Assembly (NCBI GenBank): GCA_963750895.1
Contig: CAVVSD010000006.1
Coordinates: 1,443,525-1,507,524, forward strand
Direction of reading: 5' to 3'
Source of the DNA: an uncultured Solirubrobacterales bacterium
GTDB taxonomy: Bacteria; Actinomycetota; Thermoleophilia; Solirubrobacterales; Solirubrobacteraceae
Length of the DNA: 64,000 bases
Below, piece by piece: positions 2,950 to 17,758 of this stretch (positions within the stretch are counted from its first letter, which is position 1; the number at the start of each line of letters is the position of its first letter). The position numbers were made by a program, and so were the translations under genes. Under the pieces are notes generated by a model that was given only the letters and a program-made list of their open reading frames with translations, did not search any database and was not told where the DNA came from.

Positions 2950-3548
2950 TCAGGCGTCCGGACGCGTGCGGCGGCGCAGCACGACGCCACCCGCGAGCGA
3001 GCCGGCGCCGAGCAGCGCGACGAGGCCGGTGTCCATGCCCGTGTAGGGCAGGCTCGCGCCCGTGCTCGCCTCGACCGGCTGGGCCTTCGCCGTGGCGATC
3101 GGCGCCGAGGCGTGGACCTCGCCGGCGACGGCCGAGCTCGGCTTCGTGTGGTGCTTGCGGGCGGGCTTCTTCGGCCGGCTTCTTCTCAGGGACGGCCTGC
3201 GCGACCGGCTGCGGTGCGGGCGCGGCGGCCGGCGCCGGTGCCGGTGCCGGTGCCGGGGCGGGCGCCGGTGCGGCGGCGGGAGCCGGAGCCGGTGCGGGAG
3301 CCGGTGCCGGCGTGGGCGCCGGAGCCGGCGTGGGCGCCGGTGCGGGCGTCGGCGTCGGTGCCGGGCGTCGGCGTATCAGGGACGCACGTGCCGGGCTTCG
3401 TCGAGGACTCGTGCTGACCCTGAGGACAGGTGCACGCCGAGGCGATCGCGGGCTGGACCATCGCCCCGGCACCGGCCAGGGCCGGGATCGCGGCGGCGAG
3501 GATGGCGAGGCGGCGCACGGACGGGCGGGTGATGCTGTGGGGGGACAT
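2950..3548 (-). pseudogene. Small secreted Pro/Ala/Thr-rich LPXTG cell-wall-anchored protein, split over three reading frames
   Basis: AAGGAG lies 8 nt upstream of the ATG at 3548. Signal peptide MSPHSITRPSVRRLAILAAAIPALAGAGAMVQPAIASA (frame of ORF 3186..3593). APTPAPAP... repeat (frame of ORF 2783..3472). C-terminal ...ASTGASLPYTGMDTGLVALLGAGSLAGGVVLRRRTRPDA* (third frame, stop 2950-2952) is LPXTG plus TM plus basic tail. Confidence 0.6.
3225..3365 (-). repeat. In-frame GCCGGTGCC-type short tandem repeat encoding (A/T)P dipeptide repeats
   Basis: Runs of gccggtgccggtgccggtgcc / ggagccggcgtgggcgcc on the plus strand. They translate as APAPAPTPAP in one minus-strand frame. Confidence 0.6.
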
Positions 3549-3686
3549 GCGGTGTGCTCCTTGGGGGTGGACGGCGATCACGCTGAGGAGCATCTGTGGG
3601 GAGAGCGTGATGGTCGTCAGTACTGAGCTACCTCATTGTCCACCCGCCTGCCACTCAGTACCGAGGGCCACTGCGTAGGCCGCCGC

Positions 3687-4064
3687 CTACAGCGCCTGCC
3701 CCGCGCCCAGGAGGTTGCCCTCGCTGTCGCGGAACCAGATCGCGCGCTCCCCGCGCCCGCCCTTGCTGGGGTAGTTGCCCTCGACCTCCGTGATGTCGTC
3801 GACCTCGAGCGTCACCCCGCGTTCCCGGAGGTGGGCGGCGAACGCCTCGATGTCGTCGACCTCGAACCCCATCTGCGTGTGCGTCCCCGACGGCGCGCCG
3901 GCCGAGGTGAACAGCGCGAACTCCCCGCCCCCGGCGGGGGTGTAGAGCAGCCCGCCCGGCCGCTCCTCGGACGGCTCGAGCCCGAGGGTCTCGGCGTAGA
4001 AGGCCCGGGCCCTGTCCAGGTCCTGGGCGGGAAGGCGCGTGGCGACCTTGGCGGTGGCGAGCAT
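3687..4064 (-). CDS. VOC (glyoxalase/bleomycin-resistance/dioxygenase) family protein
   Basis: 125 aa from MLATAKVATRLPAQDLDRARAFYAETLGLEP..., typical VOC N-terminus. GGAG lies 8 nt upstream of the ATG at 4064. Confidence 0.8.
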   Translation of the reverse strand: MLATAKVATRLPAQDLDRARAFYAETLGLEPSEERPGGLLYTPAGGGEFALFTSAGAPSGTHTQMGFEVDDIEAFAAHLRERGVTLEVDDITEVEGNYPSKGGRGERAIWFRDSEGNLLGAGQAL

Positions 4065-4116
4065 GCGTGTCTCCTCTCGGTTCGGTCCCTTCAGGGACCG
4101 GTCGCGAGCCGCGGAC

Positions 4117-4545
4117 TCATCGGTCTCCAATTGAGAACGAGTCGTAGTAGCGTTTGCGCGCCGACCGTGCGGCACACGCGACGACGGGGCCGTCGCCCGT
4201 GACGGGCTCGAGGTAGAACACCTCGCAGCGACATGTCCGCGGTCAGCGTCGATGCCGCTGACGAATGCGATCACGTTGCGGCCCGTGACCCGCTCGGCCG
4301 CCTCGCGGAAGTCCCCCTCGCGGGCGTGTTGGAAGAACATGCGCGTCTCGCGCAGGCGCTGGTGCTCCCCCATCGCCACCATGGACTGCTCGGCCGGCGT
4401 GAGCGTGCGCTCCAGGCTGCAGATGACGTGTCCGGGCCCGCGAGTGCGTCCGGGCGCGAGCGGGGCCGCGGCCGAACAGCTCCTTGTAGAGCCGAACCAT
4501 CTCGTTCGAGAGCTCGAGCGAGACGTCGTTGCGGGCGTCAGACAT
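4117..4545 (-). pseudogene. DUF2294 (MpsC-like) family protein with two frame changes
   Basis: N-terminus MSDARNDVSLELSNEMVRLYKELFGRGP (ORF 4243..4545). Middle ...GHVICSLERTLTPAEQSMVAMGEHQRLRETRMFFQHAREGDFREAAERVTGRNVIAFVSGIDAD is in the frame of ORF 3687..4553. The tail EVFYLEPVTGDGP...* returns to the first frame (stop 4117-4119). Confidence 0.6.
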
Positions 4546-4616
4546 AGGGCCAACGTCCTCCCCCGTGCGTCCCGGCTTGCACCGCCGATGTTGCTGCCTT
4601 ACTCCGGCAAGTCCAG

Positions 4617-5030
4617 CTACCGGACCTCGCCGTCGGTGAGCGCGATCGCCTCGATCTCGATCTGCAGCTCCGGGAGGCCGAGGGCGGTGACGCCGACGAT
4701 CGTGTCCGCCGGCCAGGGGCGGGTGAAGTACCTGGCGCGCAGCTCGACGATCTTGGGGAAGTTCGCCATGTCGGTGAGGTAGATCGTCACCTTCACGATC
4801 TTGTCGAGCCCCGAGCCACCGGCCTCCAGGACGCGCCGGAGGTTCGCGAACGTCTGCTCGGCCTGCGCGTCGAAGTCGCCGACGCCGACGATGTTGCCCG
4901 CCTCGTCGATCGACGCCTGGCCGGAGACGATCACCAGGCCCCCCACCCGGTACCCGAGCGCGATGTTGAACTGGTCGAACGGATCCGGGTCGAGCCTGAT
5001 CCCGTGCGCGTCGAGTCTCCTGTCGGTCAT
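4617..5030 (-). CDS. RidA/YjgF/UK114 family protein
   Basis: 137 aa from MTDRRL...; GLVIVSGQASIDEAGNIVGVGDFDAQAEQTFANLRRVLEAGGSGLDKIVKVTIYL is family-typical. Confidence 0.8.
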   Translation of the reverse strand: MTDRRLDAHGIRLDPDPFDQFNIALGYRVGGLVIVSGQASIDEAGNIVGVGDFDAQAEQTFANLRRVLEAGGSGLDKIVKVTIYLTDMANFPKIVELRARYFTRPWPADTIVGVTALGLPELQIEIEAIALTDGEVR

Positions 5031-5458
5031 GTCCGCAGCTCCTCCGCCAACGCGATGATGATGCCGCCGGGACCGCTGAGGTAGCAGAGCCGGTACACGT
5101 CCTCGTACTGCGCCACCTCGCCGATGAGCTCGGCGCCGTGCGCCTGCATGCGGGCGACGACCTCGTCGATGTCGTCGACGGCGAACATGAGGCGGCGAAG
5201 GCCGAGCGTGTTCGGTGCCGTCGACCCGGGTTCGACGACGTCCGGCGCGTGGAACTTCGTCAGCTCGAGTCGGCTGTGACCGTCCGGCGTCCGCACGAAC
5301 GCGATCTCGACCCGGACGCCCTCGATCCCGACGACCTGGTCGACCCACGGTCCCTCGACGGCCGATCCCGATCCGTCGCCCTGGACCTCCATGCCGAGCT
5401 CCACGAAGTAGGCGACGGCAGCCTCGAGGTCGTCGACGACCACGCCGACGTGATCCAT
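5027..5458 (-). CDS. VOC family protein (glyoxalase-like)
   Basis: MDHVGVVVDDLEAAVAYFVELGMEV... An alternative GTG at 5473 would give a GTGA overlap with the upstream cupin stop. The stop overlaps the RidA start. Confidence 0.75.
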   Translation of the reverse strand: MDHVGVVVDDLEAAVAYFVELGMEVQGDGSGSAVEGPWVDQVVGIEGVRVEIAFVRTPDGHSRLELTKFHAPDVVEPGSTAPNTLGLRRLMFAVDDIDEVVARMQAHGAELIGEVAQYEDVYRLCYLSGPGGIIIALAEELRT

Positions 5459-5469
5459 GCGCTGGATCG

Positions 5470-5877
5470 TCACGACGCGTCGGTCCACCAGTCGCGCTCG
5501 CCCTCGACGTCCCCGCGCGGGTCCTCGCCGAGGTTGGGCGCGCCGATGACGAGGATCTCGAGGCCCTGCGGCCCGGCCTCGTAGCCGCGCCACGTCCCGG
5601 GCGGGACGCGCACCGCGTCCCACTCCTCGAGCTCGACGATCTCGTCGTCGAGCTTCATCCGCCCGCTCCCGCGCACGACCACGTACACCTCCTCCTGCGT
5701 CGCGTGCGTGTGGCCGTACGGAAAGCGATAGCCGGGCGGGACGCGCTGGTAGGTCAGGCCGGAGCGCTCGAGCTCGAGCGCCTTGGTCGCCGCGCGGAAC
5801 TCGAGGTCCGGCGGGCCGTCGAAGTTGGACCCGAGATCCTCCAGGTCCCTCTTGAGGTTCCTGAGCGTGAACGGCAC
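5470..5877 (-). CDS. Cupin domain protein
   Basis: 135 aa; PYGHTHATQEEVYVVVRGSGRMKLDDE...VRVPPGTWRGYEAG matches the two cupin motifs. Confidence 0.75.
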   Translation of the reverse strand: MPFTLRNLKRDLEDLGSNFDGPPDLEFRAATKALELERSGLTYQRVPPGYRFPYGHTHATQEEVYVVVRGSGRMKLDDEIVELEEWDAVRVPPGTWRGYEAGPQGLEILVIGAPNLGEDPRGDVEGERDWWTDAS

Positions 5878-5977
5878 GGCGCAATCCTAAGGTGCGACCA
5901 TCCCGAGATCAGGCGGGCACGCGAGCAGTCGGACTGAGGAACGATGAGTTCACGCGAGATGCCACGTCTCTAGGGTC

Positions 5978-6544
5978 ATGAGCGAGAGAAGAGTGGTTCT
6001 CAAGATGGTCCTGTCCCTCGACGGTTTCGCCACGTCCCTCGACGGGACCCATGACTGGATGTTCGAGTGGTTCGGCGACGACTCGAACGAGCGAAGCCTC
6101 CGGGCGCTCGAGGAAGCCGGCGTGCACGCGATGGGCCGCCGCAGCTACGAGATCATGGGCCCGCACTGGGCCGCGTCGGAGGGGCCGATCGCGACGGCGA
6201 TGAACGACAAGCCGAAGGCCGTCTTCTCGCACACCCTCGAAAGGGCGGAATGGGGACCGGCCGAGATCTTCGGGGACCTGAGCGCGGGCATCGCGGACCT
6301 GAAGGCCCGGGACGACGGCGGGACGGTCCTGGTCCATGGTGGTCCCGACTTCGCCAAGTCGCTGACGCGCCTGGGCCTCGTCGACGAGTTCCAGCTGTCG
6401 ACGGTCCCGATCGCGATCGGCGCGGGCCGCAGCCCGTTCGCGGACCTCCAGGAGCACCTGAAGCTCGACGTCGTCGACGAGCAACGCTTCCGAAGCGGAG
6501 CCCTCGCACAGACCCTGGTGCCGAGGCGAGACGCTCAGATGTAG
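5978..6544 (+). CDS. Dihydrofolate reductase family protein (RibD C-terminal domain type)
   Basis: 188 aa; VVLKMVLSLDGFATSLDG...GRRSYEIM...VLVHGGPDFAKSLTRLGLVDEFQLSTVPIAIGAGRSPF. Confidence 0.75.
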   Translation: MSERRVVLKMVLSLDGFATSLDGTHDWMFEWFGDDSNERSLRALEEAGVHAMGRRSYEIMGPHWAASEGPIATAMNDKPKAVFSHTLERAEWGPAEIFGDLSAGIADLKARDDGGTVLVHGGPDFAKSLTRLGLVDEFQLSTVPIAIGAGRSPFADLQEHLKLDVVDEQRFRSGALAQTLVPRRDAQM

Positions 6545-6547
6545 TAC
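6534..6547. repeat. Left copy of the putative att core (CTCAGATGTAGTAC)
   Basis: Contains the stop codon (CAG ATG TAG) of the DHFR-like gene. Confidence 0.5.
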
Positions 6548-7628
6548 GTCTGAGACCGGGTCAGTACGGGGCGCACGCTAACACGACGAGCGGCACGAAG
6601 TTGCTGCAAACCCGCATGTTCCGCGGAACCGCTGTTTCTGCATCTGATCGCGAGTGACCGACGGTTGCGTGGTCGTGTGGGGGTCGCGGATCGTTCAGAT
6701 CTAGATGCCGCGAGCGTCGTTCAGAGCCCGCTTCGGAGCTCTTCGACGACCAGGTGACCGACCGCCGGTCGGCCGCCGCGCACGGCAGACGATGGCGGGC
6801 GAGGGAAGCGCGACTAGCTCACTTTCCCCTCGCCGACTCAGCCCACCTTCGTACTACCGAGGCAAGGGAAGCTCGCCCCGGGGACGCCGGTGGCATCCTG
6901 CGCCGGCGCCGAGGAGCCCAGTTCGGCCAGTCAGGCCCGGGCCGGGGGAGCGCGCTCGAGTCACCGAGGGCGGCAGAGTGGCTGGCGGCAATGCCGGGCG
7001 CTCGCGTCATTCGGTGGCCGCGGCCGACGGGGCCTCAGACCGCGGTGCGGACGTCGCGGTAGTTGCTCGCTGTCCCTCTCGCGACCCCGTTCGTCTGTTG
7101 ACATGGGTAGTAGGCCGCTCTCGTCCCGCCCCGGCTGGGATTTCCGCCCGTTCTGAACGCGACCACCCGCCCCCTCCTAGAGGAGCGGTCAGGTGGTCGG
7201 ATTCGGTTCAAGGGCTCCAATGACTCGGGTCGGGACGAGAGCGGATGAGAAGGGAACGAGACGAGGGACGAAGCGGGACAAGGGATCCATGCATCTCAAG
7301 AGAGAGATGAGAGAGTTGAGAGAGAGGACGCGGAGGCCGGTGCTGAGGTGGCGGCGTAGACAGCGTTCGGTAAGAGTCGCCTTGGCGTAGAGCGCGTAAA
7401 GCGCGAGGAGTGTCGGTCGGCCTCCGGAGCATGGCCATGAAGCCGTCGGCGCTGGTCGGCAGCGGCCTTGGTTCCACGCGTGGCGACGAGCCGATTCTGA
7501 ACAGCCGCGGCACGCGCTCGCGCACGCCGGAGCTATGAAGTTTGCTGGCTAGCCGCGTCGCTGCCGCTTCCACGCGGTTGCGGAAGTGCGATGCGGTCGC
7601 AAGGGAACGTCACATGGCGTTGCGGTGG

Positions 7629-8162
7629 TCATCCGCCTTGGGGCCGCCCCACCGCGCAGACCGCGGGGACCGGGTGCAGGTCCTCGACCAGCATCCTGTC
7701 GACGGAGAATCCGCCCTCGCGTAGCCGGTCGGCCAGCGCATTCCCGAGGTCTGCGGCTCGCTCCGGCGCGAAGTGGCGTGCGTCCCAGAAGATGTAGAAC
7801 GCCCCGTCCCGGACCAGGTGCTCGCGCACTGCACTGAGCGCCGCCTTCGGCTGCAGCCAGAAGGGAGCGACGTTGAAGGCGAAGACCTTGTCGAAGTGCT
7901 GAGCGCCGAGGTCGGCGTCCTCCAGCGCGATGGCCTCGAGCATCGCCCTGCCCGCGTTGACGTGCTCGCGATTTCGCCGCGTGGCCATCTCGATCATCCT
8001 GGGCGAGCGGTCGATCGCGGTGATCGTTCCTGTCGCCAGCCGTTCGCAGACCAGGGAGACCGCGACCCCGTGGCCGCAGCCGACCTCGAGGAGGCGGTCC
8101 GCCGGGCGGACCTCCAGCGTGTCGACCGCCCAGACGAACCGCTCCGATGCCTTGCCGGCCAT
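7629..8162 (-). CDS. Class I SAM-dependent methyltransferase (island cargo)
   Basis: Motif I LLEVGCGHGVAV, then ITAIDRSPRMIE...FDKVFAFNV. The start is taken at MAGKASERF; the ORF track extends to 8354. Confidence 0.65.
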   Translation of the reverse strand: MAGKASERFVWAVDTLEVRPADRLLEVGCGHGVAVSLVCERLATGTITAIDRSPRMIEMATRRNREHVNAGRAMLEAIALEDADLGAQHFDKVFAFNVAPFWLQPKAALSAVREHLVRDGAFYIFWDARHFAPERAADLGNALADRLREGGFSVDRMLVEDLHPVPAVCAVGRPQGG

Positions 8163-8450
8163 GCCCCAGCAATAGCACCGTGCGCCCGTGAAGCCCATGC
8201 TGATCGACTCGATGAGCGTCTCGACGGACGGCTTCATCGCCGACCGCGAGGGCGAACCTGCGCGCGCGGGGAGCACATCGCCGATCGGAAGTAACTTCGG
8301 CGGCTGCTCCTCAGCGCAGCAGTAGCCGATCCCCTCGACTGCTTCATCGTCCAAGTGAGTCGAGTGCAGCGTCGCGGACTACCGCTACGCCGTCGCCAGC
8401 AACCGGACCGCTACTCGTCCAAGCGAGCGGTCGACCAGGCCGATAGCTCT

Positions 8451-9193
8451 TCAGCTCTCCGGGTTCGGCAGCAGCTCTGCCGACTTCGGGCCGGAGTCGG
8501 CGTAGGGGACGATCTGGTCGTCGTCGCCGTGCATGACCAGCACCGGGATCGTGATCTGCTTGAGGTCCTCGGTGAAGTCGGTCTGCGAGAACGCGACGAT
8601 GCAGTCTAGTGAGCCTTGATCCCGCCCATCATGCCTTGGCGCCACCAGTTCTCGATGATCGCCTCGGACGGCTCGCGGCCTTCGCGGTTGAAGCCGTAGA
8701 ACGGGCCGGCCGCGATCTCGCGGTAGAACTGCGAGCGGCGGCGTCGAGTCTGCCCTGCGGAAGTCGTCGAAGACCTCGATTGGCAGTGCCCTCCGGGTTG
8801 GCGTCGCTCTGGACCATGATCGGCGGGACGGCGTCGATCAGCACGGCCGGCGACGCGGTCCTGGCCGTGGCGGCGCGAGGTAGCGCGCGACCTCGCCGCC
8901 GCCGGTCGAGTGGCCGACGTGGACGGAGTCGCGCAAGTCGAGGTGCGTTGACCAGGGCGGCGAGGTCGTCGGCGTAGTGGTCCATGTCGTGGCCGTCGAA
9001 CACCTGCGTCGGAGCGCCCGTGCCCGCGACGGTCGTGCGCGACCACGCGATAGCCCTCGCTCAGAAAGAACATCACCTGCGCGTCCCAGTCGTCTGACGA
9101 CAGCGGCCAGCCGTGGCTGAAGACCATCGGCTGACCCGATCCCCAGTCCTTGTAGTAGATCTCCACGCCGTCGTTGGTGGTGATCGTGCTCAT
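8451..9193 (-). pseudogene. Alpha/beta hydrolase (non-haem haloperoxidase-like), multiply frameshifted and 3'-truncated
   Basis: Pieces sit in three frames. MSTITTNDGVEIYYKDWGSGQPMVFSHGWPLSSDDWDAQVMFFLSEGYRVVAHDRRGHGRS (ORF 8606..9385). FDGHDMDHYADDLAALV... and [19 protein letters not shown] (ORF 8629..9003). [17 protein letters not shown]...[13 protein letters not shown] followed by [39 protein letters not shown] (ORF 8451..8645). Confidence 0.7.
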
Positions 9194-9701
9194 GGGCGGG
9201 AACGTCCCATCGTTCGCCCGGCGGGTCAACAAGCCGAAGGTGACCGCCGGGCGAAGCTGGCGCATCGGCGCGATCACAGAAGGGTCAACGACCGCGTCGC
9301 TCCCTGGGTGGAGCAGCAGGCTGCGCGGGCGATCCGGCGGCGACCCCGAGAATCGCGAACTCGGTGTTGACCGGGATCGTCCCACCGCTCGGCGGATGGG
9401 CGAGGTTCAGCGACAGGCGTCCCTCGTCCAGCAGATCGACCACTGCTCTGCGCGAGAAGCGACAGCCAAGAACGTCGCCGCGTGGCTTCCGCCGCATGCC
9501 AGGCGACGCCAACGAGGCTGGCGCCCCGACGCGCCGAGCCGCTTGCGCTTTCGCCTGACAGCAGCAGCGAAGCGGGCCCGCGCGCCGCTATCGCACTGCG
9601 CGACAAGCAGCAGCGAGGCCGGATGCTGAGCCCCGTCCATTGCGACAGTGGCCGGATGTCCGTCGATCGCCGCTGTTGCTTCGAAGCGGCAGCGACACGC
9701 C

Positions 9702-10016
9702 TCAGCGCCCCGCGGATATCTCTTCGGGTCGCGGATCGCGCGCGAACATCGAGCGTCGTTGCGACGATGCGCCGAACGAGGCAAAGTTCGCCCGCGCCTG
9801 GCTGAGACTGATGTGGTTCGGTCCGCCCGGTGCGTCAGGCCCTCCGTCGCGGCGGTTGTTGTCCGCGCGGTCGTCCTCCCAGCCGCACACAGCGCAAGTC
9901 TCGTAGTGGGACACGTTCAGCAGTGTGAGACAGCGGCAGCACTCGCACGCATGACGCGGAGCCTCGGCCAGTTCACGCATGAGTCTCTCGGACACGTCCT
10001 TCGCCCACGCCGGCAT
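9702..10016 (-). CDS. Cysteine-rich CPCC-domain small protein (island cargo)
   Basis: ACECCRCLTL...YETCAVCGWEDD...GGPNHISLSQARANFASFG matches the CPCC pattern. An upstream fragment MFNRSRRFELDDGRPLVVQWSGERFGWTVYVPGD in another frame suggests a disrupted longer gene. Confidence 0.5.
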   Translation of the reverse strand: MPAWAKDVSERLMRELAEAPRHACECCRCLTLLNVSHYETCAVCGWEDDRADNNRRDGGPDAPGGPNHISLSQARANFASFGASSQRRSMFARDPRPEEISAGR

Positions 10017-10453
10017 GCTCTGGGGGCCGACGTAGAGGACGTCGCGCGGATCGGCGTCGCGGCCAACGTCGGAGCCTTGGTATCGCCGGGTACGTACACA
10101 GTCCAGCCGAATCGCTCGCCGCTCCACTGCACGACGAGTGGGCGTCCATCATCGAGCTCGAACCGTCTGGATCGATTGAACACGCCAAGAACGTTAGAGC
10201 GGGCCGCTCACGCTTCGCCTGACACGCCCGCGAGCACGGCAGCGCATCGCATATCGCGATGCGCGACGAGCACTAGTACGCAGCGGAGCGTTCCTTCGGC
10301 GCCCGGCGGGCTCGGAGCGACGACGCCATCGAGAGACGACTCGACGACATCAAACGGCGCTGCCCGACCTTCGATACACCACGAGACTCCGCCGTGACGG
10401 TGAGGTGGGCTCCGGCGCGCCGAAGGCACTAGCTCCACCGATGTCGCCGCGGC

Positions 10454-10708
10454 TTAGGGAAGGTCCTCCTCGGTGACGTGCGCCTCGCAGCCAAGGCGCT
10501 GCGCCTCCGAGACCGCGTTGGCGCAGTACGCCTTCACGGCGGGGCTCGCACCCTCTGCCCGTTCCACGTCGTCGGACTCGAACTCGTGGGACTCGGTTCC
10601 GTCGAGCTTCTCGGGGGTCGAATCCACGCCGGCGCCGGAACCCGCCCCGCAACCCCACAGGACAGCGAGGAGCGCGGCGAGCGACAGGCGACACGACCGC
10701 GACATCAC
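10454..10708 (-). CDS. Small putative lipoprotein (island cargo)
   Basis: MMSRSCRLSLAALLAVLWGC carries a lipobox-like LWGC, followed by an acidic mature part of about 60 aa. Confidence 0.45.
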   Translation of the reverse strand: MMSRSCRLSLAALLAVLWGCGAGSGAGVDSTPEKLDGTESHEFESDDVERAEGASPAVKAYCANAVSEAQRLGCEAHVTEEDLP

Positions 10709-10791
10709 GAACGGACCGTAGCCCGCAGGCCCGGACGAGGTCGCAGTCCCGCGCGCCCGCGATGTGCGCCGTCAGGCAGTGCAGCGGGCGG

Positions 10792-12086
10792 TTAGAAGCG
10801 GCGGAACGGGGCCCCCTGTTCAGCTTCGAGATCCCGCCGCGCCCGCTCGGCGCGCCGTTGTCCTCGGATACGCGGTCTCATCCACGGGCCGTACACCTCA
10901 TCGAGCACCGCCTCGACCTTCTCGTACGACTCGCGGAACAGATGCGTGTACAGCCCGGTGGTGCCCTGCGCCTTGTGGCCCATGAGCTGCTCGACCTCGT
11001 GGCGGCGGATGCCGCCGGCCGCCAGGACTGACGCGTACGTGTGCCGCAGTTGGTGCCACATGCGGCCCTGGCGGCGTAGGCCGCAGCGCTCGTATGCCGG
11101 CCCGAGGAACAGCGTCGACGGCAGCGTTTCATTCCAGGGCCCGTCCGACGTCGGGTGGGTGAACACGAAGCCTGTCGCCTGGCGGTGCCGGCCGAGCAGC
11201 TGCGCGACGCCGCTGTAGAGCGGCAGCTCGCGCTCGCTGTCGTACTTGCAGCGCACGATCGAGGGCTCGCGCTTGCCGCCCTCCCCAGCTCGCCTCCAGT
11301 ACAGCTGCCCGCGAAGGTCCAATCGGCCGGACCCGAAGTCCAGCCACTCCCACTTCAGGCCGAGCAGCTCGTTGCGCCTGAGGCCGCTCGTCAGCGCGAG
11401 CAGCACCATCCCGACGTACGGCTCGGGTGTCGCGTCGAGCAGCGCGTAGGCCTCGGACACCTCGAGGTACTTCGCCGGCTTGCGCCGGACGTTGAGGTCG
11501 AGGACGTCGTGGCGGCTGCCGCCGCGGTGGCGCGCGCGGGTCGGCGAGCGCAGCGGGTTGTTCGCGATGTGCCCCTGCGAGACGGCGTCGGTGAGCATCC
11601 CGGACAGCACCGTGAGCGAGGCCTTGGCGGTGCCCTCGGTGAGACCCGCGGCGATCTTCGTGCGCAGGTACTGCAGGAGCAGCGGCTGGTCGATCGCGCC
11701 GAGCGGCAGCTTGCCGAAGGCGGGCTGCAGGTGCCGGCGCCAATCGCCCTCGTACTTGTTGTACGTGAGCGGCGACATCCGACCGAGCTCCACCTGTGCG
11801 GCGATGCGCTCGAACCACGGGCCGGCGAACTCCTCGACGTCACCGGACGGCTCGGCGGCAGGACCTGGCCGTGGACCACCTTCTCGCGCAGCTCGGCCAG
11901 GCGGCGCTCGAAGTCGGCGAGGTCCGCGATTCGCCAGCCCTGCTCGAGGTAGCCGAGACGCCGCTCGACGCGGGCGACGCGCGCCTGCACCGTCGGGCGG
12001 CACGAGCACAGATCCGAGCGCAGCATCTGCCCGCGGGCCGACGCCGGGCAGCGCTTCGCGTGATGCAGCCGCAGCGAGCCGCGCAT
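10792..12086 (-). pseudogene. Tyrosine-type site-specific integrase, frameshifted near codon 75
   Basis: Catalytic region LTSGLRRNELLGLKWEWLDF ... HQLRHTYASVLAAGGIRRHEVEQLMGHKAQGTTGLYTHL (R, H-x-x-R, H, Y). The N-terminal 75 codons (MRGSLRLHHAKRC...LAELREKVVHGQVLP) are in the frame of ORF 11391..12086 and the rest in the frame of ORF 10792..12264. The junction is near 11855-11865. Confidence 0.75.
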
Positions 12087-12095
12087 CAGCGGGCC

Positions 12096-12371
12096 TCAGA
12101 AGCGCCGCGGCAGGCGCCGTTCGACGATGCGAATCGTCGTCTTCCGCGCGGGAACGCCGCGCGCGTCGCGGACGAGCCGCTCGACGTCCTCCTCGGCGAA
12201 GCGCACGTAGCGCCGGCCCGGCAGCTTGACGCGCGGCAGCACGCCCTCGCGCCCGAGCTTCCACACGTAGCGCTCGGTGTAGCCGAGGCGCTCGGCGACC
12301 TGCGCGGCGGTGAGCAGTCGACCCGTCGTGTCCACTGCTCGGAGAGCGGGGCGCGAAGCTGCATCCCGCAC
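12096..12371 (-). CDS. Excisionase / MerR-type HTH DNA-binding protein
   Basis: LLTAAQVAERLGYTERYVWKLGREGVLPRVKLPGRRYVRFAEEDVERLV is a typical Xis HTH_17 pattern. It sits immediately upstream of the integrase. Confidence 0.65.
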   Translation of the reverse strand: MRDAASRPALRAVDTTGRLLTAAQVAERLGYTERYVWKLGREGVLPRVKLPGRRYVRFAEEDVERLVRDARGVPARKTTIRIVERRLPRRF

Positions 12372-12470
12372 GGAGCGATCCTCATCTAGCTTGTCTCCTC
12401 GGCGTCGTCGGTTGCGACCCGAGGTCTCAGACTTCAGAAAGCGCCTCTTTGCAGGGCTTTCTCTGATATC

Positions 12471-12484
12471 CTCAGATGTAGTAC
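12471..12484. repeat. Right copy of the putative att core (CTCAGATGTAGTAC)
   Basis: Contains the stop codon and last four codons (ATG TAC TAC ATC TGA, minus strand) of the Rrf2 gene. Confidence 0.5.
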
Positions 12485-12867
12485 ATCGCCACGCCCGCCT
12501 CGCGCACCTCGCGCTCGACGACGTCGGCGATCGTGGTCCGCTCCATCACGGCGCGGGCCGCTGCCGCGGCCTCGGCGAGGACGCCCTCGGCGTCGCGGCC
12601 GAACGGGCCGTCGAGGAGCTCGACGATCTGCAGGATCGTCACGCTCGCCGGCTCGGTGGCGAACGCGTAGCCGCCCTTCACGCCCCGCTGGGAGCGCAGG
12701 ACGCCGCCGCGGCGGAGGACCGCGAAGAGCTGCTCGAGGAACTGGACCGGGATCTCCCGCCTGCGGGCGAGGTCGCCGATCGGCACCGGGGTCTCGGTAC
12801 CGCCCGAGCGTGCGAGCTCGGTGAGCGCCTTGATGGCGTAGGGAGACTTCGTGGTGACGGAGATCAC
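12472..12867 (-). CDS. Rrf2 family transcriptional regulator
   Basis: MISVTTKSPYAIKALTELAR...PIGDLARRREIPVQFLEQLFAVLRRGGVLRSQRGVKGGYAF. Confidence 0.85.
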   Translation of the reverse strand: MISVTTKSPYAIKALTELARSGGTETPVPIGDLARRREIPVQFLEQLFAVLRRGGVLRSQRGVKGGYAFATEPASVTILQIVELLDGPFGRDAEGVLAEAAAAARAVMERTTIADVVEREVREAGVAMYYI

Positions 12868-12941
12868 GCGCGTCAGAGCCTAGTGCGCGTGGCCCTGCAC
12901 GGGTGTAGCGTCCGGCTACTCGACACAGGGAGGCCTGTCTC

Positions 12942-14165
12942 ATGTGCGATGTGGTCGGGAAGGCGTACGCCGCCGGGCTGTCGCGCCGGGGGTTCCTCGG
13001 CGCGAGCGGGGCCGTCGCGGCCGGGGCGCTGCTCGCGGGGGTGCCGGCGGGGGCTGCGGCGCACGCCGCCGAGGGCCCGAAGGGGCCCGCCCCGGTGACG
13101 CTGGGCAAGCCCCTGCAGGGCTACCGCACGCGCGTGGTGCTGCTCGGGACGGCGGGCGGGCCGGTCTGGTGGCCGAACACCGACCGCAAGGGCATCTCGA
13201 CCGCGATCGCGGTCGGCGACCGCGTCTACCTCGTCGACTGCGGCGACGGGTTCGGGCACCGGTTCCGCCAGACCGACCTCGCGGGCCCAACCCTGCAGAC
13301 GTCGGGGGCCACGACGCTGAACCGGCTTCAGGGTGTCTTCCTCACCCACCTGCACTCCGACCACGTCATCGACTACGCGAGCATCCCGGTGCTCGGGCTC
13401 TTCGCCGGGCTGCAGCAGCCGCGGCCCGAGCCGGTCCACGCGTTCGGTCCCGGCAACCGCGGTCGGCTGCCCGACGTCCTGCCGCCGGGTCGCCCGGCGC
13501 CGCCGGTCATCAGCCCCGCGAACCCGACCCCGGGCACGGCGGAGATGACGGAGCTCCTCTACGCGGCGTTCGCGACCGACCTCAACGACCGCATGCGCGA
13601 CAGCGGCGCGCCCGACCCGCACACGCGCTTCGTGCCGCACGACATCGCGCTGCCGGCGGGCTCGAACGACCCGACGAAGCACCCACCTCCCCGCGTGTCG
13701 CCGTGGCTCGTCCACGAGGACGACGCCGTGAAGGTCACGGCGACGTTGGTGGACCACGGCCAGGTGTTCCCGTCGTTCGGCTTCCGCTTCGACACCGACG
13801 ACGGCTCGATCGTCATCTCGGGCGACACGGCGCCGTCCGACAACCTCGTCGAGCTCGCCCAGGGCGCCGACGTGCTCTGCCACGAGGTCATCGACCCTGC
13901 CTACATCCAGCTGCTGTTCGGCCCGCCGCCGTATCCGCCCGACGTTCAGGCGATCGTCGACCACCTCATCAACGCGCACACCACCATCGAGGACGTCGGC
14001 CCGATCGCCGATCGCGCGGGCGTGCCCACGCTCGTCCTGCACCACTACGTGCCGGGCAACGGCACCCGCGAGACCTGGATGCAGGCCCAGGCCACCTACT
14101 CCGGACAGCTCGTCGTGGGCGAGGACCTCATGCAGATCGGCGTCGGCGCCCGGACGAAGGCCTGA
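12942..14165 (+). CDS. MBL-fold metallo-hydrolase with a twin-arginine (Tat) signal peptide
   Basis: LSRRGFLGASGAVAAGALLAGVPAGAAAHA signal; THLHSDHV zinc motif. Divergent from the Rrf2 gene. Confidence 0.8.
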   Translation: MCDVVGKAYAAGLSRRGFLGASGAVAAGALLAGVPAGAAAHAAEGPKGPAPVTLGKPLQGYRTRVVLLGTAGGPVWWPNTDRKGISTAIAVGDRVYLVDCGDGFGHRFRQTDLAGPTLQTSGATTLNRLQGVFLTHLHSDHVIDYASIPVLGLFAGLQQPRPEPVHAFGPGNRGRLPDVLPPGRPAPPVISPANPTPGTAEMTELLYAAFATDLNDRMRDSGAPDPHTRFVPHDIALPAGSNDPTKHPPPRVSPWLVHEDDAVKVTATLVDHGQVFPSFGFRFDTDDGSIVISGDTAPSDNLVELAQGADVLCHEVIDPAYIQLLFGPPPYPPDVQAIVDHLINAHTTIEDVGPIADRAGVPTLVLHHYVPGNGTRETWMQAQATYSGQLVVGEDLMQIGVGARTKA

Positions 14166-14171
14166 GACGCG

Positions 14172-14203
14172 ACCGGCCGCCTCGGGTTCCCGAGGCGGCC
14201 GGT
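14172..14203. terminator. 14-bp perfect-stem hairpin between convergent genes (possible bidirectional terminator)
   Basis: ACCGGCCGCCTCGG-gttc-CCGAGGCGGCCGGT, 7 nt after the 14165 stop and 25 nt before the 14229 stop. No clear U-tract. Confidence 0.45.
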
Positions 14204-14228
14204 GGCACGACGTGACTGCGGAGGCGGC

Positions 14229-15377
14229 CTAGAGCCAGCCGCGCTCCGTCGCGATGAGGACGGCCTGGGCGCGGTCGACAGCGCCGAGCTTGCCGTAGAT
14301 GTTGTGGAGGTGCGTGCGGACCGTGGAGGTCGAGAGCTTCAGCTCCAGCGCGATCTGCTTGTAGACCTTGCCCTCGGCGAGGCGCTTGAGCACCTCGAGC
14401 TCGCGCCCGGACAGCGGGCACGGGTCGATCTGCCGGCGCTGGCCGGTCGTCGGGTAGGGCAGGTCGTACATGACCGTGCGCAGCTCCGCCGGGCCGAGGC
14501 CGATCGAACGGGCCGTCTTGAGCAGCTCCGTCGGCGACACCTGGCTGCCCTGCGCGTAGTGCGCGAGCATGTCCGCGAGGCGGACGAAGGCGGCCTCGCC
14601 GATCGCGTCGTCGGCGTGGTGGCGCTCGATGACCGAGGCGACGGCCTTCGGCAGGCCCCACCGGCGGGCGAGGACGCCGCCGACCAGCGCGTGGTCGACG
14701 CCGAGCTCACGACGCTCGCGGTGGATGCGCTCCTCGGGCGTGCGGGCGTCGCGGTGCACCTGGCCGGGGTAGCCGGGGTACGCGTGCATGAGGACGAGCT
14801 TGCCGACGTCGTGCAGCAGCGCGGTGACGATGAGCCGGTCGCGGTCCTCGTAGCCGACCTCCTGCGCGATGCGGTCGGCGGCGCGCTGCGTCGCGACGGC
14901 GTGCAGGCGGAAGCGCTCGGGCGCGGCGTCCCACACGGAGGAGCGCTCGAAGAAGTCGAAGGTGCGTGCGCGGGTGGCGAGCGTGTGGACGGCCTCGGGC
15001 GAGAGCAGCTCGACGGAGGTGACGATCGACTCCACGCGACCGCGCGACTTGCCCTCGACCTGGTTGGCGAGGCGCAGGACGGCGATCACCAGCGCGACGT
15101 CGGACTCGACGGCGGCGACGACCTCGCCGGCGGAGACGCGCTCCTGCGACACCACGCGCAGAAGACGGTTGCGAGACTCGGCGAGAGCGGGGAACGCCTC
15201 GAGCGCCTCGAAGGCGGCCGTGAGGCGGCGACCGTGACCTTCGTTGTGTCGCCGCGAAGCACCGGCGCCTGACGGGGGCGCGATCGGGCCTCGTGGGCTC
15301 GGGGCGGGGGTGGACATGTTTGGCGCTTCCCTGCTTTCTTGGGGTGGAGATCCGGGTGTGGAGTCGTGCGGGGGCAC
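14229..15377 (-). CDS. HDOD-domain protein fused to a C-terminal LuxR-type HTH
   Basis: HDOD-like core (VVAAVESDVALVIAVLRLANQ...LLHDVGKLVLMHAYPGY) plus LSGRELEVLKRLAEGKVYKQIALELKLSTSTVRTHLHNIYGKLG. The true start may lie downstream of 15377. Confidence 0.7.
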   Translation of the reverse strand: MPPHDSTPGSPPQESREAPNMSTPAPSPRGPIAPPSGAGASRRHNEGHGRRLTAAFEALEAFPALAESRNRLLRVVSQERVSAGEVVAAVESDVALVIAVLRLANQVEGKSRGRVESIVTSVELLSPEAVHTLATRARTFDFFERSSVWDAAPERFRLHAVATQRAADRIAQEVGYEDRDRLIVTALLHDVGKLVLMHAYPGYPGQVHRDARTPEERIHRERRELGVDHALVGGVLARRWGLPKAVASVIERHHADDAIGEAAFVRLADMLAHYAQGSQVSPTELLKTARSIGLGPAELRTVMYDLPYPTTGQRRQIDPCPLSGRELEVLKRLAEGKVYKQIALELKLSTSTVRTHLHNIYGKLGAVDRAQAVLIATERGWL

Positions 15378-15540
15378 GGCGGTCGTGACCTGTTTATCGG
15401 CAGGTCTAGACGCTTGTTTGAGCCCAACCGCCCCCGCGGGTGGCCAAGTGGCCGATCCGGGGGCCGCGCACTGCTACACCCACCCGCTCATGGGCAGGTC
15501 ACCCACCCATCAGGGCTGGCGATTTTGCCGCTGAGCGGCG

Positions 15541-16867
15541 CTATCGAGCCAGCGCCGCGTCGATGCGCCGGAGCGCCTCGTCGTGGCCCAGGACGGAGAG
15601 CGTCTCGAAGATCCCGGGCGACACCGTCGTGCCCGCGACCGCGACGCGCAGCGGCTGGTAGACCTCGCGCGGCTTGCAGCCCCGCCGCTCGAGGACGCCC
15701 TGCAGCGCCTGCTCGATCCCCTCGACGCCGAACGGCTGGACGCCGTCCAGCGCGGCGCGCGCATCGCGCAGCGCCTCGGCGCCTCCGTCGGAGAGCCACT
15801 TCTCGCGTGCCGCCGGGTCGTCGGCCGGCCCGTCGAAGATGAACCCGGCGAGCGGCCAGAAGTCCTCGAGGGTCTGGATCTTCTCGCGCGAGATCTCCAC
15901 GGCGTCGCGCAGGCCGCTCCGGCCGGTGTGGCGCTCGAGCCGGCCCGTGAGCTGCTCGCCGCTCAACGCACGGATGTACCGCCCGTTCAGCCAGCGGAGC
16001 TTCTGCTCGTCGAAGCGTGCGGGGTTGTGCGAGACGCGCGTGATGTCGAAGCGATCGACGAGCTGCTCGGTGCCGAGGATGGTCTCGTCGTCGGGGTCGC
16101 CCCAGCCGAGCAGCGCGAGGTAGTTGCGCACCGCCTCGGGGAGGTAGCCCGCCGCCCGCAGCTCCTGCACCGACGCCGCGCCGTGGCGCTTGGAGAGCTT
16201 CTTGCCGTCCGGCCCGTGCAGCAGCGGCATGTGCGCGAACAGCGGCGGCTCGGCGCCCATCGCCTCCATGACCAGCAGCTGCTTGGGCGTGTTGGAGAGG
16301 TGGTCCTCGCCGCGGACGACGTGCGTGAACGCGCCGTCGACGTCGTCCACGGCCACCGCGAAGTTGTAGAGGACGCTCCCGTCCGCCCGTGGCGATGACG
16401 GGGTCGTCCTGGTGGACGTTCGCGAACGTCGTGTCGCCGCGGATGACGTCGTGGACGACCGTGGTCCCGTCGTCGGGCACCCGCAGGCGGATGGCGCCGT
16501 GCTCCTCGGGCTCGCCGCGGAACCCGCGGTCGGCACCGTGGCGCTCCTTGTAGGCCTTGACGTCGTCGGCGGTCGCCGACGAGTGGTAGGCCAGCCCGCG
16601 GTCGAGCAGGTCGCGCAGCACCTCGGCGTGGCGGTCCGCGTGGCTCGTCTGGAAATCGGGCCCCTCGTCCCAGTCGAGCTCCAGCCAGCGCAGGGCGTCG
16701 AGGATCTGCTCGACGTTCTCGGGTGTCGAGCGCTCCCTGTCGGTATCTTCGATGCGCAGCACCAGGGCGCCGCCCGAACCGCGCGCCATGAGCCAGTTGT
16801 AGAGCGCCGTGCGCGCGCCGCCGATGTGCAGGGCGCCGGTGGGCGACGGAGCGAAGCGAACGCGCAT
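15541..16867 (-). pseudogene. gltX: Glutamate--tRNA ligase with a single internal frame change (possibly a sequence error)
   Basis: [26 protein letters not shown]... (HIGH motif) down to ...HQDDPVIA is in the frame of ORF 15488..19051. [37 protein letters not shown]...KLSKRHG (KMSK-like) is in the frame of ORF 15541..16980. The junction is near 16390. Confidence 0.85.
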
Positions 16868-16885
16868 GACCACCACGCTACAGCC

Positions 16886-17758
16886 ATGCTGATCGGTGCC
16901 CACGTGTCCCCTGCGGGCGGGCCGGCGAAGGCCCTCGAGCGCGGCGACGAGCGCGGCTGCCGGTCGATCCAGATCTTCAACCAGAGCCCGCGGCAGTGGA
17001 AGCCGCACGCCTACTCCGACGACCAGCTCGCCGAGTACCGCGAGGCGATCGAGAGCTCGGGCGTGGAGGCGGTGCTCATCCACGCCGTCTACCTGCTCAA
17101 CCCGGCCAGCGACGACCCCGACATCCGCGAGAAGTCGCTCGCATCGCTCACGACGTCGCTGCGCGTGGGCGACGCGCTGGGCGCGGCCGGCGTCGTGCTG
17201 CACCCCGGGTCGGCGCTGAAGGGCGAGGTCGGGCCGGCGATCAAGCGCGCCGGCGAGGTCGTGAAGGAGGCGCTGGCGGAGTCGGGGTCCTGCGAGCTGC
17301 ACCTCGAGGACACCGCGGGCGCCGGCGGCACGCTGGGCCGCACGTTCGAGGAGCTCGCCAAGCTCCTGCGCGCCTGCGGGCGCAGCAAGCGCCTCGGCGT
17401 GTGCCTCGACTCCTGCCACCTGCTGGCGTCCGGCTACGACGTGCGCACGATCGAGGGCGTCGACGACGTCCTCGAGCGCTTCGACGCCGAGGTCGGCCTG
17501 GAGAAGCTGCGCTCCCTGCATCTCAACGACTCCCTGCAGCCGCTGGGCTCCAACCGCGACCGTCACGCGCCCGTGGGGAAGGGCGAGATGGGCGAGGACG
17601 GCTGCGCGGCGTTCCTGTCCGCCCCGGCGTTCGACGACCTGCCCTGCATCCTCGAGACGTCGGGCGACGGCGACCCGCCGGGCGGCCCCGCGCGCGAGCA
17701 GATCAAGCTCACCGAGAAGCTGCGCAAGCGCGGTCGCAAGGCGCGTGGGCTGAGCTAG
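16886..17758 (+). CDS. nfo: Deoxyribonuclease IV (endonuclease IV)
   Basis: [20 protein letters not shown]...[11 protein letters not shown]...[10 protein letters not shown]...[10 protein letters not shown]...[14 protein letters not shown]...LHLNDS. Confidence 0.85.

Follow-up and report, generated by a model that had tools for sequence, protein, structure and literature searches.

A small genomic island, probably integrated site-specifically, at the 3' end of an Rrf2-family regulator gene in an uncultured soil Solirubrobacterales bacterium

An uncultured bacterium from soil, assigned to the order Solirubrobacterales by the record titles of its metagenome-assembled genome (MAG; assembly G000, 5.71 Mb, 72.7% GC), carries a genomic island, real but of an ordinary type, at positions 6534-12484 of the 64,000-nucleotide stretch of DNA analysed here (hereafter the window, whose own numbering is used for all positions). 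Our analysis strongly favours a small site-specific island, in which a tyrosine integrase recombined the attachment site of the island (attP) with a chromosomal site (attB) consisting of the very end of an Rrf2-family regulator gene, i.e. the codons M-Y-Y-I and the stop. The island carries its own copy of the last Rrf2 codons, which leaves the Rrf2 gene whole at the right junction (attR) and the displaced original end at the left junction (attL). In the literature we found no paper linking Rrf2, attB and an integrase, and the pairing of an integrase with an attB formed by an Rrf2 3' end is previously undescribed.

The attachment site at the Rrf2 gene end

The features that make up the two junctions and the recombination module, from the target gene leftwards, are:

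12472-12867, minus strand: Rrf2-family regulator, the target gene (Pfam Rrf2, 6.8e-25; TIGR00738, 84 bits)
12471-12484: attR core, which gives Rrf2 its working last codons (Y-Y-I) and TGA
12372-12470: P arm, 99 nt, with the inverted-repeat partner GACCCGAGGTCTCAGAC (12416-12432)
12096-12371, minus strand: excisionase or recombination directionality factor (xis; HTH_17, Pfam 4.7e-9)
10792-12086, minus strand: tyrosine integrase (int; Pfam Phage_integrase and Phage_int_M)
6548-6562: P' arm inverted repeat GTCTGAGACCGGGTC, abutting the core
6534-6547: attL core, a displaced copy of the Rrf2 3' end that keeps the original TGA on the minus strand
5978-6544, plus strand: RibD_C or DHFR-like reductase gene in the chromosomal flank (Pfam RibD_C, 5.2e-18)

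The island is bounded by the 14-mer CTCAGATGTAGTAC, present at 6534-6547 and 12471-12484 as described in the initial annotation of this DNA, and spans 5,937 bp from core start to core start. That annotation had reckoned with a few random matches to such a word in 64 kb; dinucleotide-preserving shuffles of the window gave an expectation of 0, even with one mismatch. Nor is the word common genome-wide, as just these two copies exist in the entire 5.71-Mb assembly (both strands checked). Inside the direct repeats, the perfect 10-bp inverted repeats noticed earlier, GTCTGAGACC (6548-6557) and GGTCTCAGAC (12423-12432), are exact reverse complements of each other and reach about 15-17 nt, with GTCTGAGACC..GGGTC on the left and its complement, containing a 2-nt insertion, at 12416-12432. 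The attL core is also present in the sister assembly L050, which is 98-99% identical and has the same island and att cores, and short-read contigs cross the attL junction. An interior richer in AT than the surroundings had been proposed as well, and this part held (69.0% GC in the island versus 72.4% and 73.0% in the 6-kb left and right flanks); the compositional boundary that went with it is not a sharp one, the change being a modest dip.

The genes for recombination lie at the right end of the island, where the initial annotation had placed them. The catalytic Arg-His-Arg-Tyr set of the integrase can be read from the motifs RRNE, HQLRH and GH...LYTH in the tblastn alignment, and its amino acid sequence is 82-85% identical to an intact 431-aa protein of the congener G002; the best PDB match has an E value of 1e-5, and there is no close sequence likeness to lambdoid integrases. 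The excisionase corresponds to the frame at 12096-12371, which scored above the cutoff of NCBIfam TIGR01764 'excise' (30.2 versus 28.8 bits) and matched PHROG excisionase families too. A 99-aa open reading frame (ORF) at 12086-12385 was rejected as the excisionase, having no Pfam match and being the wrong frame of the HTH_17 gene. A tRNA or tmRNA as the target was rejected: ARAGORN found none within 3000-16000, and the conserved 73-nt and 65-nt pieces seen by BLAST are parts of protein genes. An unpublished genome, G005, was also among these BLAST matches and is used for none of the statements made here.

Among relatives, the site occurs both empty and occupied. The congener G001, with flanks 96-97% identical to the window, has an empty site with the uninterrupted Rrf2 end GGTCAGATGTGGTACATCG, and so the empty site for which the initial annotation had suggested a search does exist, though without a DHFR-like gene abutting Rrf2. 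In G002 the same site holds a related island, whose int and xis genes are 82-86% identical in nucleotide sequence to those of the window and which also shares the P' arm and a structured repeat of about 420 nt (71-74%; see below); its cargo, a secreted 604-aa protein without family, is unrelated to that of the window. At attR of this island, TTAAATGTAGTAC provides a new TAA stop, and at the far junction (attL) CTCAGATGTAGTAC keeps the old TGA. The 5.2-kb island at L018 is bounded by the repeat GATGTACTACATCT, with TAG on the Rrf2 side and TGA on the far side, and carries a STAND ATPase and a protease resembling the PADLOC candidate PDC-S45 (match at 4e-57). Further occupied sites are L017 and the metagenome contig L065. 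At L033, a hybrid P'-core-P att site (L033:12881-13131) at the Rrf2 site indicates two elements in tandem, the second of which has a P arm but int and xis undetectable by tblastn.

These five other occupied loci (G002, L017, L018, L033 and L065) have related integrases, 54-85% identical, and the four occupied loci with annotated islands differ in cargo from one to the next. A substitute TAA or TAG stop is brought in by the islands of G002, L017, L018 and L033, and the displaced copy keeps TGA in several islands. Together with int and xis, the homologous repeats in G002, L018 and L033 bear out the earlier proposal of an integrative island bounded by a 14-bp repeat. A large conserved gene downstream of int does not belong to this pattern: the 604-aa protein of G002 and a 571-aa protein of L033, considered as candidates, are unrelated and without family match.

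A degenerate search for the Rrf2 end yielded 38 metagenome contigs, about 33 of them with an orthologous Rrf2 gene (63-80% protein identity) that has the same TCAGATGTAGTACATCGC end and usually adjoins an HDOD-LuxR gene. The latter is found beside Rrf2 in G000, G001, G002, L017, L018, L033 and most metagenome contigs that are long enough. On about 30 of these approximately 33 contigs no related int or xis was detected by tblastn, and the sequence right past the core differs in each. The integrase family itself turned up in 3 of the 401 genomes sampled for the order, and soil metagenomes added about 70 protein clusters; more distant relatives, 54-55% identical, lie directly behind TrwC relaxase genes and not behind Rrf2. 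The core common to the independent islands, taken as the intersection of their identity segments, is ATGTAGTAC, inside the Rrf2 codons M-Y-Y-I. From these comparisons the recognised target is the Rrf2 gene end alone, with the DHFR-like gene no part of it, and this gene end is a hotspot, to which related integrases brought different cargo in other genomes. A second integrase lineage may use the same attB, too: on the metagenome contig L079 (core at 7139), a tyrosine integrase 27% identical to the family lies 1.1 kb from the same Rrf2 end.

Strand exchange would occur within ATGTAGTAC. Judged from sequence only, CTCAGA/TCTGAG around the core would be the core-type sites of the integrase, and the GTCTGAGACC..GGGTC inverted repeats on both arms would be the arm-type sites. 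The islands of G002, L018 and L033 share with the P' arm a conserved GACCCGG motif (minus strand) next to the core; in the P arm, TTTGCAGGGCTTT (12448-12460) is conserved in those of G002, L017 and L065. The HTH_17 protein encoded upstream of int would direct excision. Rrf2 and xis-int share their direction, with Rrf2 upstream, and because xis-int is on the same strand and directly downstream, with no terminator-like site found, Rrf2 read-through could feed xis-int expression; simple scans of the island found neither a promoter nor a terminator. The hypervariable far flank may be the scar of repeated arrivals, of tandem accretion as in L033 and of partial deletions.

Several points weigh against this reading. 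Both the integrase binding sites and the position of the crossover are derived by inference from the letters of the DNA alone. An island is present in the more distant G002 but not in the closest relative, G001, a pattern that fits loss and independent gain alike (divergence of G002: int 82-86% versus flanks 90-94% identical). Both assemblies of the species have a broken frame in int, the window near 11837 and L050 near 11344, 11369 and 11482. Finally, four soil metagenome runs yielded neither an excised circle nor an empty-site junction, in a search with little power that covered contigs only, at a depth of about 4x for island-specific DNA; candidate excision joints in these runs were short-sided and look spurious.

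Integrity of the island and its cargo

Four cargo genes lie between the integrase and the gene-free left part of the island:

7629-8204, minus strand: S-adenosylmethionine (SAM)-dependent methyltransferase (Pfam Methyltransf_12/25/11), frame intact
8444-9193, minus strand: alpha/beta-hydrolase, frame broken about 12 times in the window, intact 274-aa ORF in L050
9702-10127, minus strand: Cys_rich_CPCC domain protein (Pfam PF14206, 2.5e-20)
10454-10708, minus strand: small lipoprotein-like protein with signal peptide and Cys, gene-like GC3, 83 aa in L050

An important question is whether the broken frames belong to the living island or to its assembly. In the window, int is split, with residues 1-83 in one frame and 84-431 in another and one base missing near 11837/11838 relative to G002, and the hydrolase has about 12 indels relative to its G006 homologue. 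Taken at face value, these lesions, the frame breaks of int in L050 and the lack of an excision junction in the metagenome contigs would describe a fixed, decaying remnant with a frameshifted integrase and a wrecked hydrolase, for which excision is no longer possible. We regard such a remnant as conceivable but rather doubtful, since the breaks in int differ in position between the two assemblies: the base missing from the window is there in L050, which in turn carries three single-base insertions where the window is in frame, i.e. each assembly is in frame where the other breaks. The hydrolase is whole in L050, and Logan short-read contigs (up to three runs) side with L050 against the window at six indel sites (6667, 6944, 7257/8, 7417, 7527 and 8872). 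At two indel sites in the 420-nt repeat (about 6944 and 7154), L050 has the length of the other family copies and the window differs. Also, an intact 431-aa integrase allele (P0002), 94-96% identical, is present on a JGI metagenome contig.

A gene outside the island points in the same direction. At 15488-16999 (minus strand), 4 kb from the island, the catalytic domain of the essential gltX gene (glutamyl-tRNA synthetase) is split over two frames in the window and is part of an intact 441-aa ORF in L050, which indicates single-base assembly errors in this MAG. As far as such comparisons of assemblies can tell, the breaks are mostly assembly errors and the integrase is intact, with a fair degree of likelihood on both counts. 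With the int break and the broken hydrolase most likely due to assembly, the island may thus still be mobile.

Around the hydrolase, between 8000 and 9500, 108 substitutions and 23 indels separate the window from L050 and a block of about 290 nt is missing, while the flanks differ by less than 1%. This stretch coincides with the hydrolase gene, the metagenome depth of which is 50-150 times that of the island (word depth 200-660x for the hydrolase versus about 4x for island-specific DNA). The region may plausibly have been mis-polished with reads that stem from homologues in other organisms.

The methyltransferase (189 aa in L050) has 88% amino acid identity over 191 aa to a frame of G025, a genome of a different family, and the small lipoprotein-like protein at 10454-10708 has no family match. 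The only PADLOC match in the window island is mad2, a generic methyltransferase-domain match, and the cargo, i.e. methyltransferase, hydrolase, CPCC protein and small lipoprotein, is without clear defence signature. A search of the island with PHROGs for phage structural genes gave the integrase and the excisionase only, plus one match of unknown function (the CPCC protein).

The structured repeat, transfer and the neighbouring genes

A gene-free stretch of about 1.1 kb at the left of the island houses a repeat of which further copies exist elsewhere:

6826-7246: structured repeat of about 420 nt, followed by a purine-rich tail at about 7247-7340
L013:5558-5986, L020:6373-6795, L021:6193-6616: further copies
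L022:6421-6853, L023:6451-6890, L024:6597-7012: further copies
G000 C7:172866-173236: further copy

When aligned with six other full copies from G001 and G002 (74-80% identity to the window copy), the repeat is conserved in blocks, and its indels have lengths other than multiples of three. RNAalifold predicted 134 pairs for this alignment, 11 of them with compensatory changes; the consensus energy lies about 7 sd below that of column shuffles (z = -6.9 and -7.6 on the two strands), and one strand folds as well as the other. A purine-rich stretch, the sequence of which is not conserved, comes after each of the seven aligned copies. No Rfam match was found at E <= 0.1 for the repeat or the remainder of the gene-free part (4000-14000, both strands). 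With a covariance-model search, G002 and G000 each gained a further copy. The repeat is present in 2-5 copies per genome in genus g1 only: of 201 family genomes searched by BLAST, 3 have it, as do 3 of 121 relatives searched with a covariance model of the 5' domain, and all of these belong to this genus; it was not found in other genera or viral contigs.

Small islands, with tyrosine integrases from two lineages unrelated to each other, contain or adjoin most of the copies. Other copies adjoin integrases only about 25% identical to that of the window, which are inserted after DAHP synthase and FAD-protein genes and accompanied by SIR2-like or TumE cargo. The idea of a trio of recombinases next to these other copies was dropped, their neighbours being one integrase and housekeeping genes. 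Tentatively, the repeat might be a new kind of functional element with structure: an RNA, or else a cis site that works as single-stranded DNA, for instance an origin of transfer or replication. If so, it would be, apart from int and att, the sole 'core' that these otherwise cargo-only islands have in common.

A cis site for transfer would have a place if the island were an integrative mobilizable element (IME) that is moved by a helper conjugative element, with the 420-nt repeat or the GACCCGG motifs as the site acted upon. This we consider unlikely, even though the integrase relatives directly behind TrwC relaxase genes, the lack of transfer genes in the island itself and the occurrence of the repeat in islands with different integrases within the genus would all agree with it. 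Neither a relaxase nor a coupling protein, and no replication gene or FtsK-like Tra, was found among the island ORFs by Pfam or among the gene calls of L050, and no recognisable origin of transfer (oriT) is present in the island. Moreover, the islands of this integrase family at L017, L018 and L033-L036 lack the repeat, which fits an RNA or a repeat resembling a miniature inverted-repeat transposable element (MITE) equally well.

On the left side, the initial annotation had the island inserted where two convergent genes, the DHFR-like gene and Rrf2, shared their stop codons. The left copy of the 14-mer does hold the TAG of the DHFR-like ORF (5978-6544), the last 4 codons of which also lie in or next to the left core, and the Rrf2 ORF (12472-12867) has its TGA in the right copy. 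Deleting one repeat and the interior makes the two ORFs overlap by 10 nt (core positions 2-11), not by the 11 nt claimed; this applies to G000 and to L050, which has the same DHFR junction. As an attL normally keeps the chromosomal flank present at insertion, the island could in principle have entered a pre-existing tail-to-tail overlap. Such an origin is nonetheless improbable, and as a general definition of the target the shared-stop overlap is refuted. The adjacency is unique to this species: in G001, G002, L017, L018, L033 and the approximately 33 metagenome contigs, the far side of the core differs each time and in no case is a DHFR-like gene found beside Rrf2, and islands of the family use the same core whatever this far side holds.

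In addition, the orthologues of the DHFR-like gene end four codons earlier, with VPKR-stop in G001 (93% nucleotide identity; about 350 kb away on the same contig) and VPRR-stop in G012. In G000, DHFR homology reaches as far as 6529; having lost its native stop, the frame continues as VPRR-D-A-Q-M-stop into the core. Because the orthologues stop earlier and the G000 frame runs into the core, the DHFR/Rrf2 overlap appears to be a lineage-specific junction at the core edge, a by-product rather than a conserved target. That the 14-bp repeat, short by itself, is a chance match or the target-site duplication of a transposon, with no site-specific element involved, has a negligible probability in view of its shuffled expectation and two-copy count, the same core around other islands with a homologous integrase, the empty site in G001 and the absence of a transposase from the island.

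Other features of the flanks stand apart from the island. Beyond the DHFR-like gene, a cupin gene (135 aa; 5470-5877, minus strand) has 86-92% DNA identity to copies in many genomes, which span different families of the order, sometimes with several per genome; it is unusually conserved or has recently spread. Downstream of the DHFR-like orthologue of G012 (L011, about 2050-2150), head-to-tail units of about 40 nt contain a GACGGGGTCTGACCCCGTC hairpin. On the other side of the island, a metallo-beta-lactamase-fold gene with a twin-arginine translocation (TAT) signal (12869-14166) separates Rrf2 from the HDOD-LuxR gene. This second lineage-specific insertion at the Rrf2 locus is present in L050 and absent from G001 and G002, where 44 and 22 bp take its place.

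Known systems and significance

Overall, the biology of this island follows the known logic of e14 in icd and of tRNA islands. The element e14 and phage 21 insert in the 3' end of E. coli icd and restore the gene (PMC6379469), and the substitute 3' end can differ slightly from the original (PMC6379469). As in these cases, a tyrosine integrase places the element within a protein-coding gene, the element supplies a substitute 3' end and the displaced end stays as a pseudo-fragment at the other junction. In contrast to e14, however, for which the duplicated segment is 163 bp, it is only 9-14 bp here (4 codons and the stop), and the present element differs from e14 and phage 21 in its regulator-gene target, its size of 5-6 kb, its lack of phage genes and its uncultured Solirubrobacterales host. 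Integration into the 3' end of a protein gene, taken as uncommon in the initial annotation, is less unusual than assumed (PMC6379469, PMC12884075): TIGER-based counts place 56.6% of islands in tRNA or tmRNA genes or intergenic DNA and many others in protein genes (PMC12884075). Islands in tRNA and tmRNA genes, of the Islander/TIGER type, operate by the same logic (PMC4383910), with tandem arrays and hotspots of changing cargo there too, whereas the target here is protein-coding, a minority but known case (PMC12884075).

With actinomycete integrative and conjugative elements (AICEs) of the pSAM2 type and with TrwC-relaxase IMEs, the island shares an actinobacterial host, the placing of int-xis at one end beside att, and the link of its 54-55% identical integrase relatives to TrwC relaxases. 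Unlike them, the islands of the window, G002, L018 and L033 are without replication gene, FtsK-like Tra and relaxase; the AICE hallmarks, i.e. Rep (RepSA/RepAM/prim-pol) and an FtsK/SpoIIIE-like Tra, are absent from the Pfam results for the island. Its genes show none of the defining features of an integrative and conjugative element or IME, of an AICE or of a prophage or phage satellite. Defence and cargo hotspots are similar in that a single attB receives interchangeable cargo (STAND ATPase and PDC-S45 in L018, AAA_21 and SIR2_2 in L034), the difference being that the window island has no clear defence signature in its cargo.

A word of caution concerns long-read MAGs in general: apparent gene decay in their islands can be a polishing artefact where abundant foreign homologues mix into the reads. 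For the biology of this group, the Rrf2-end site is a cargo hotspot, some occupants of which carry candidate defence genes. The integrase and its attB are defined with base-pair ends in an almost unstudied order of soil actinobacteria, and pairs of this kind can serve as integration tools for Actinomycetota that are hard to engineer and help to find the limits of islands in MAGs.

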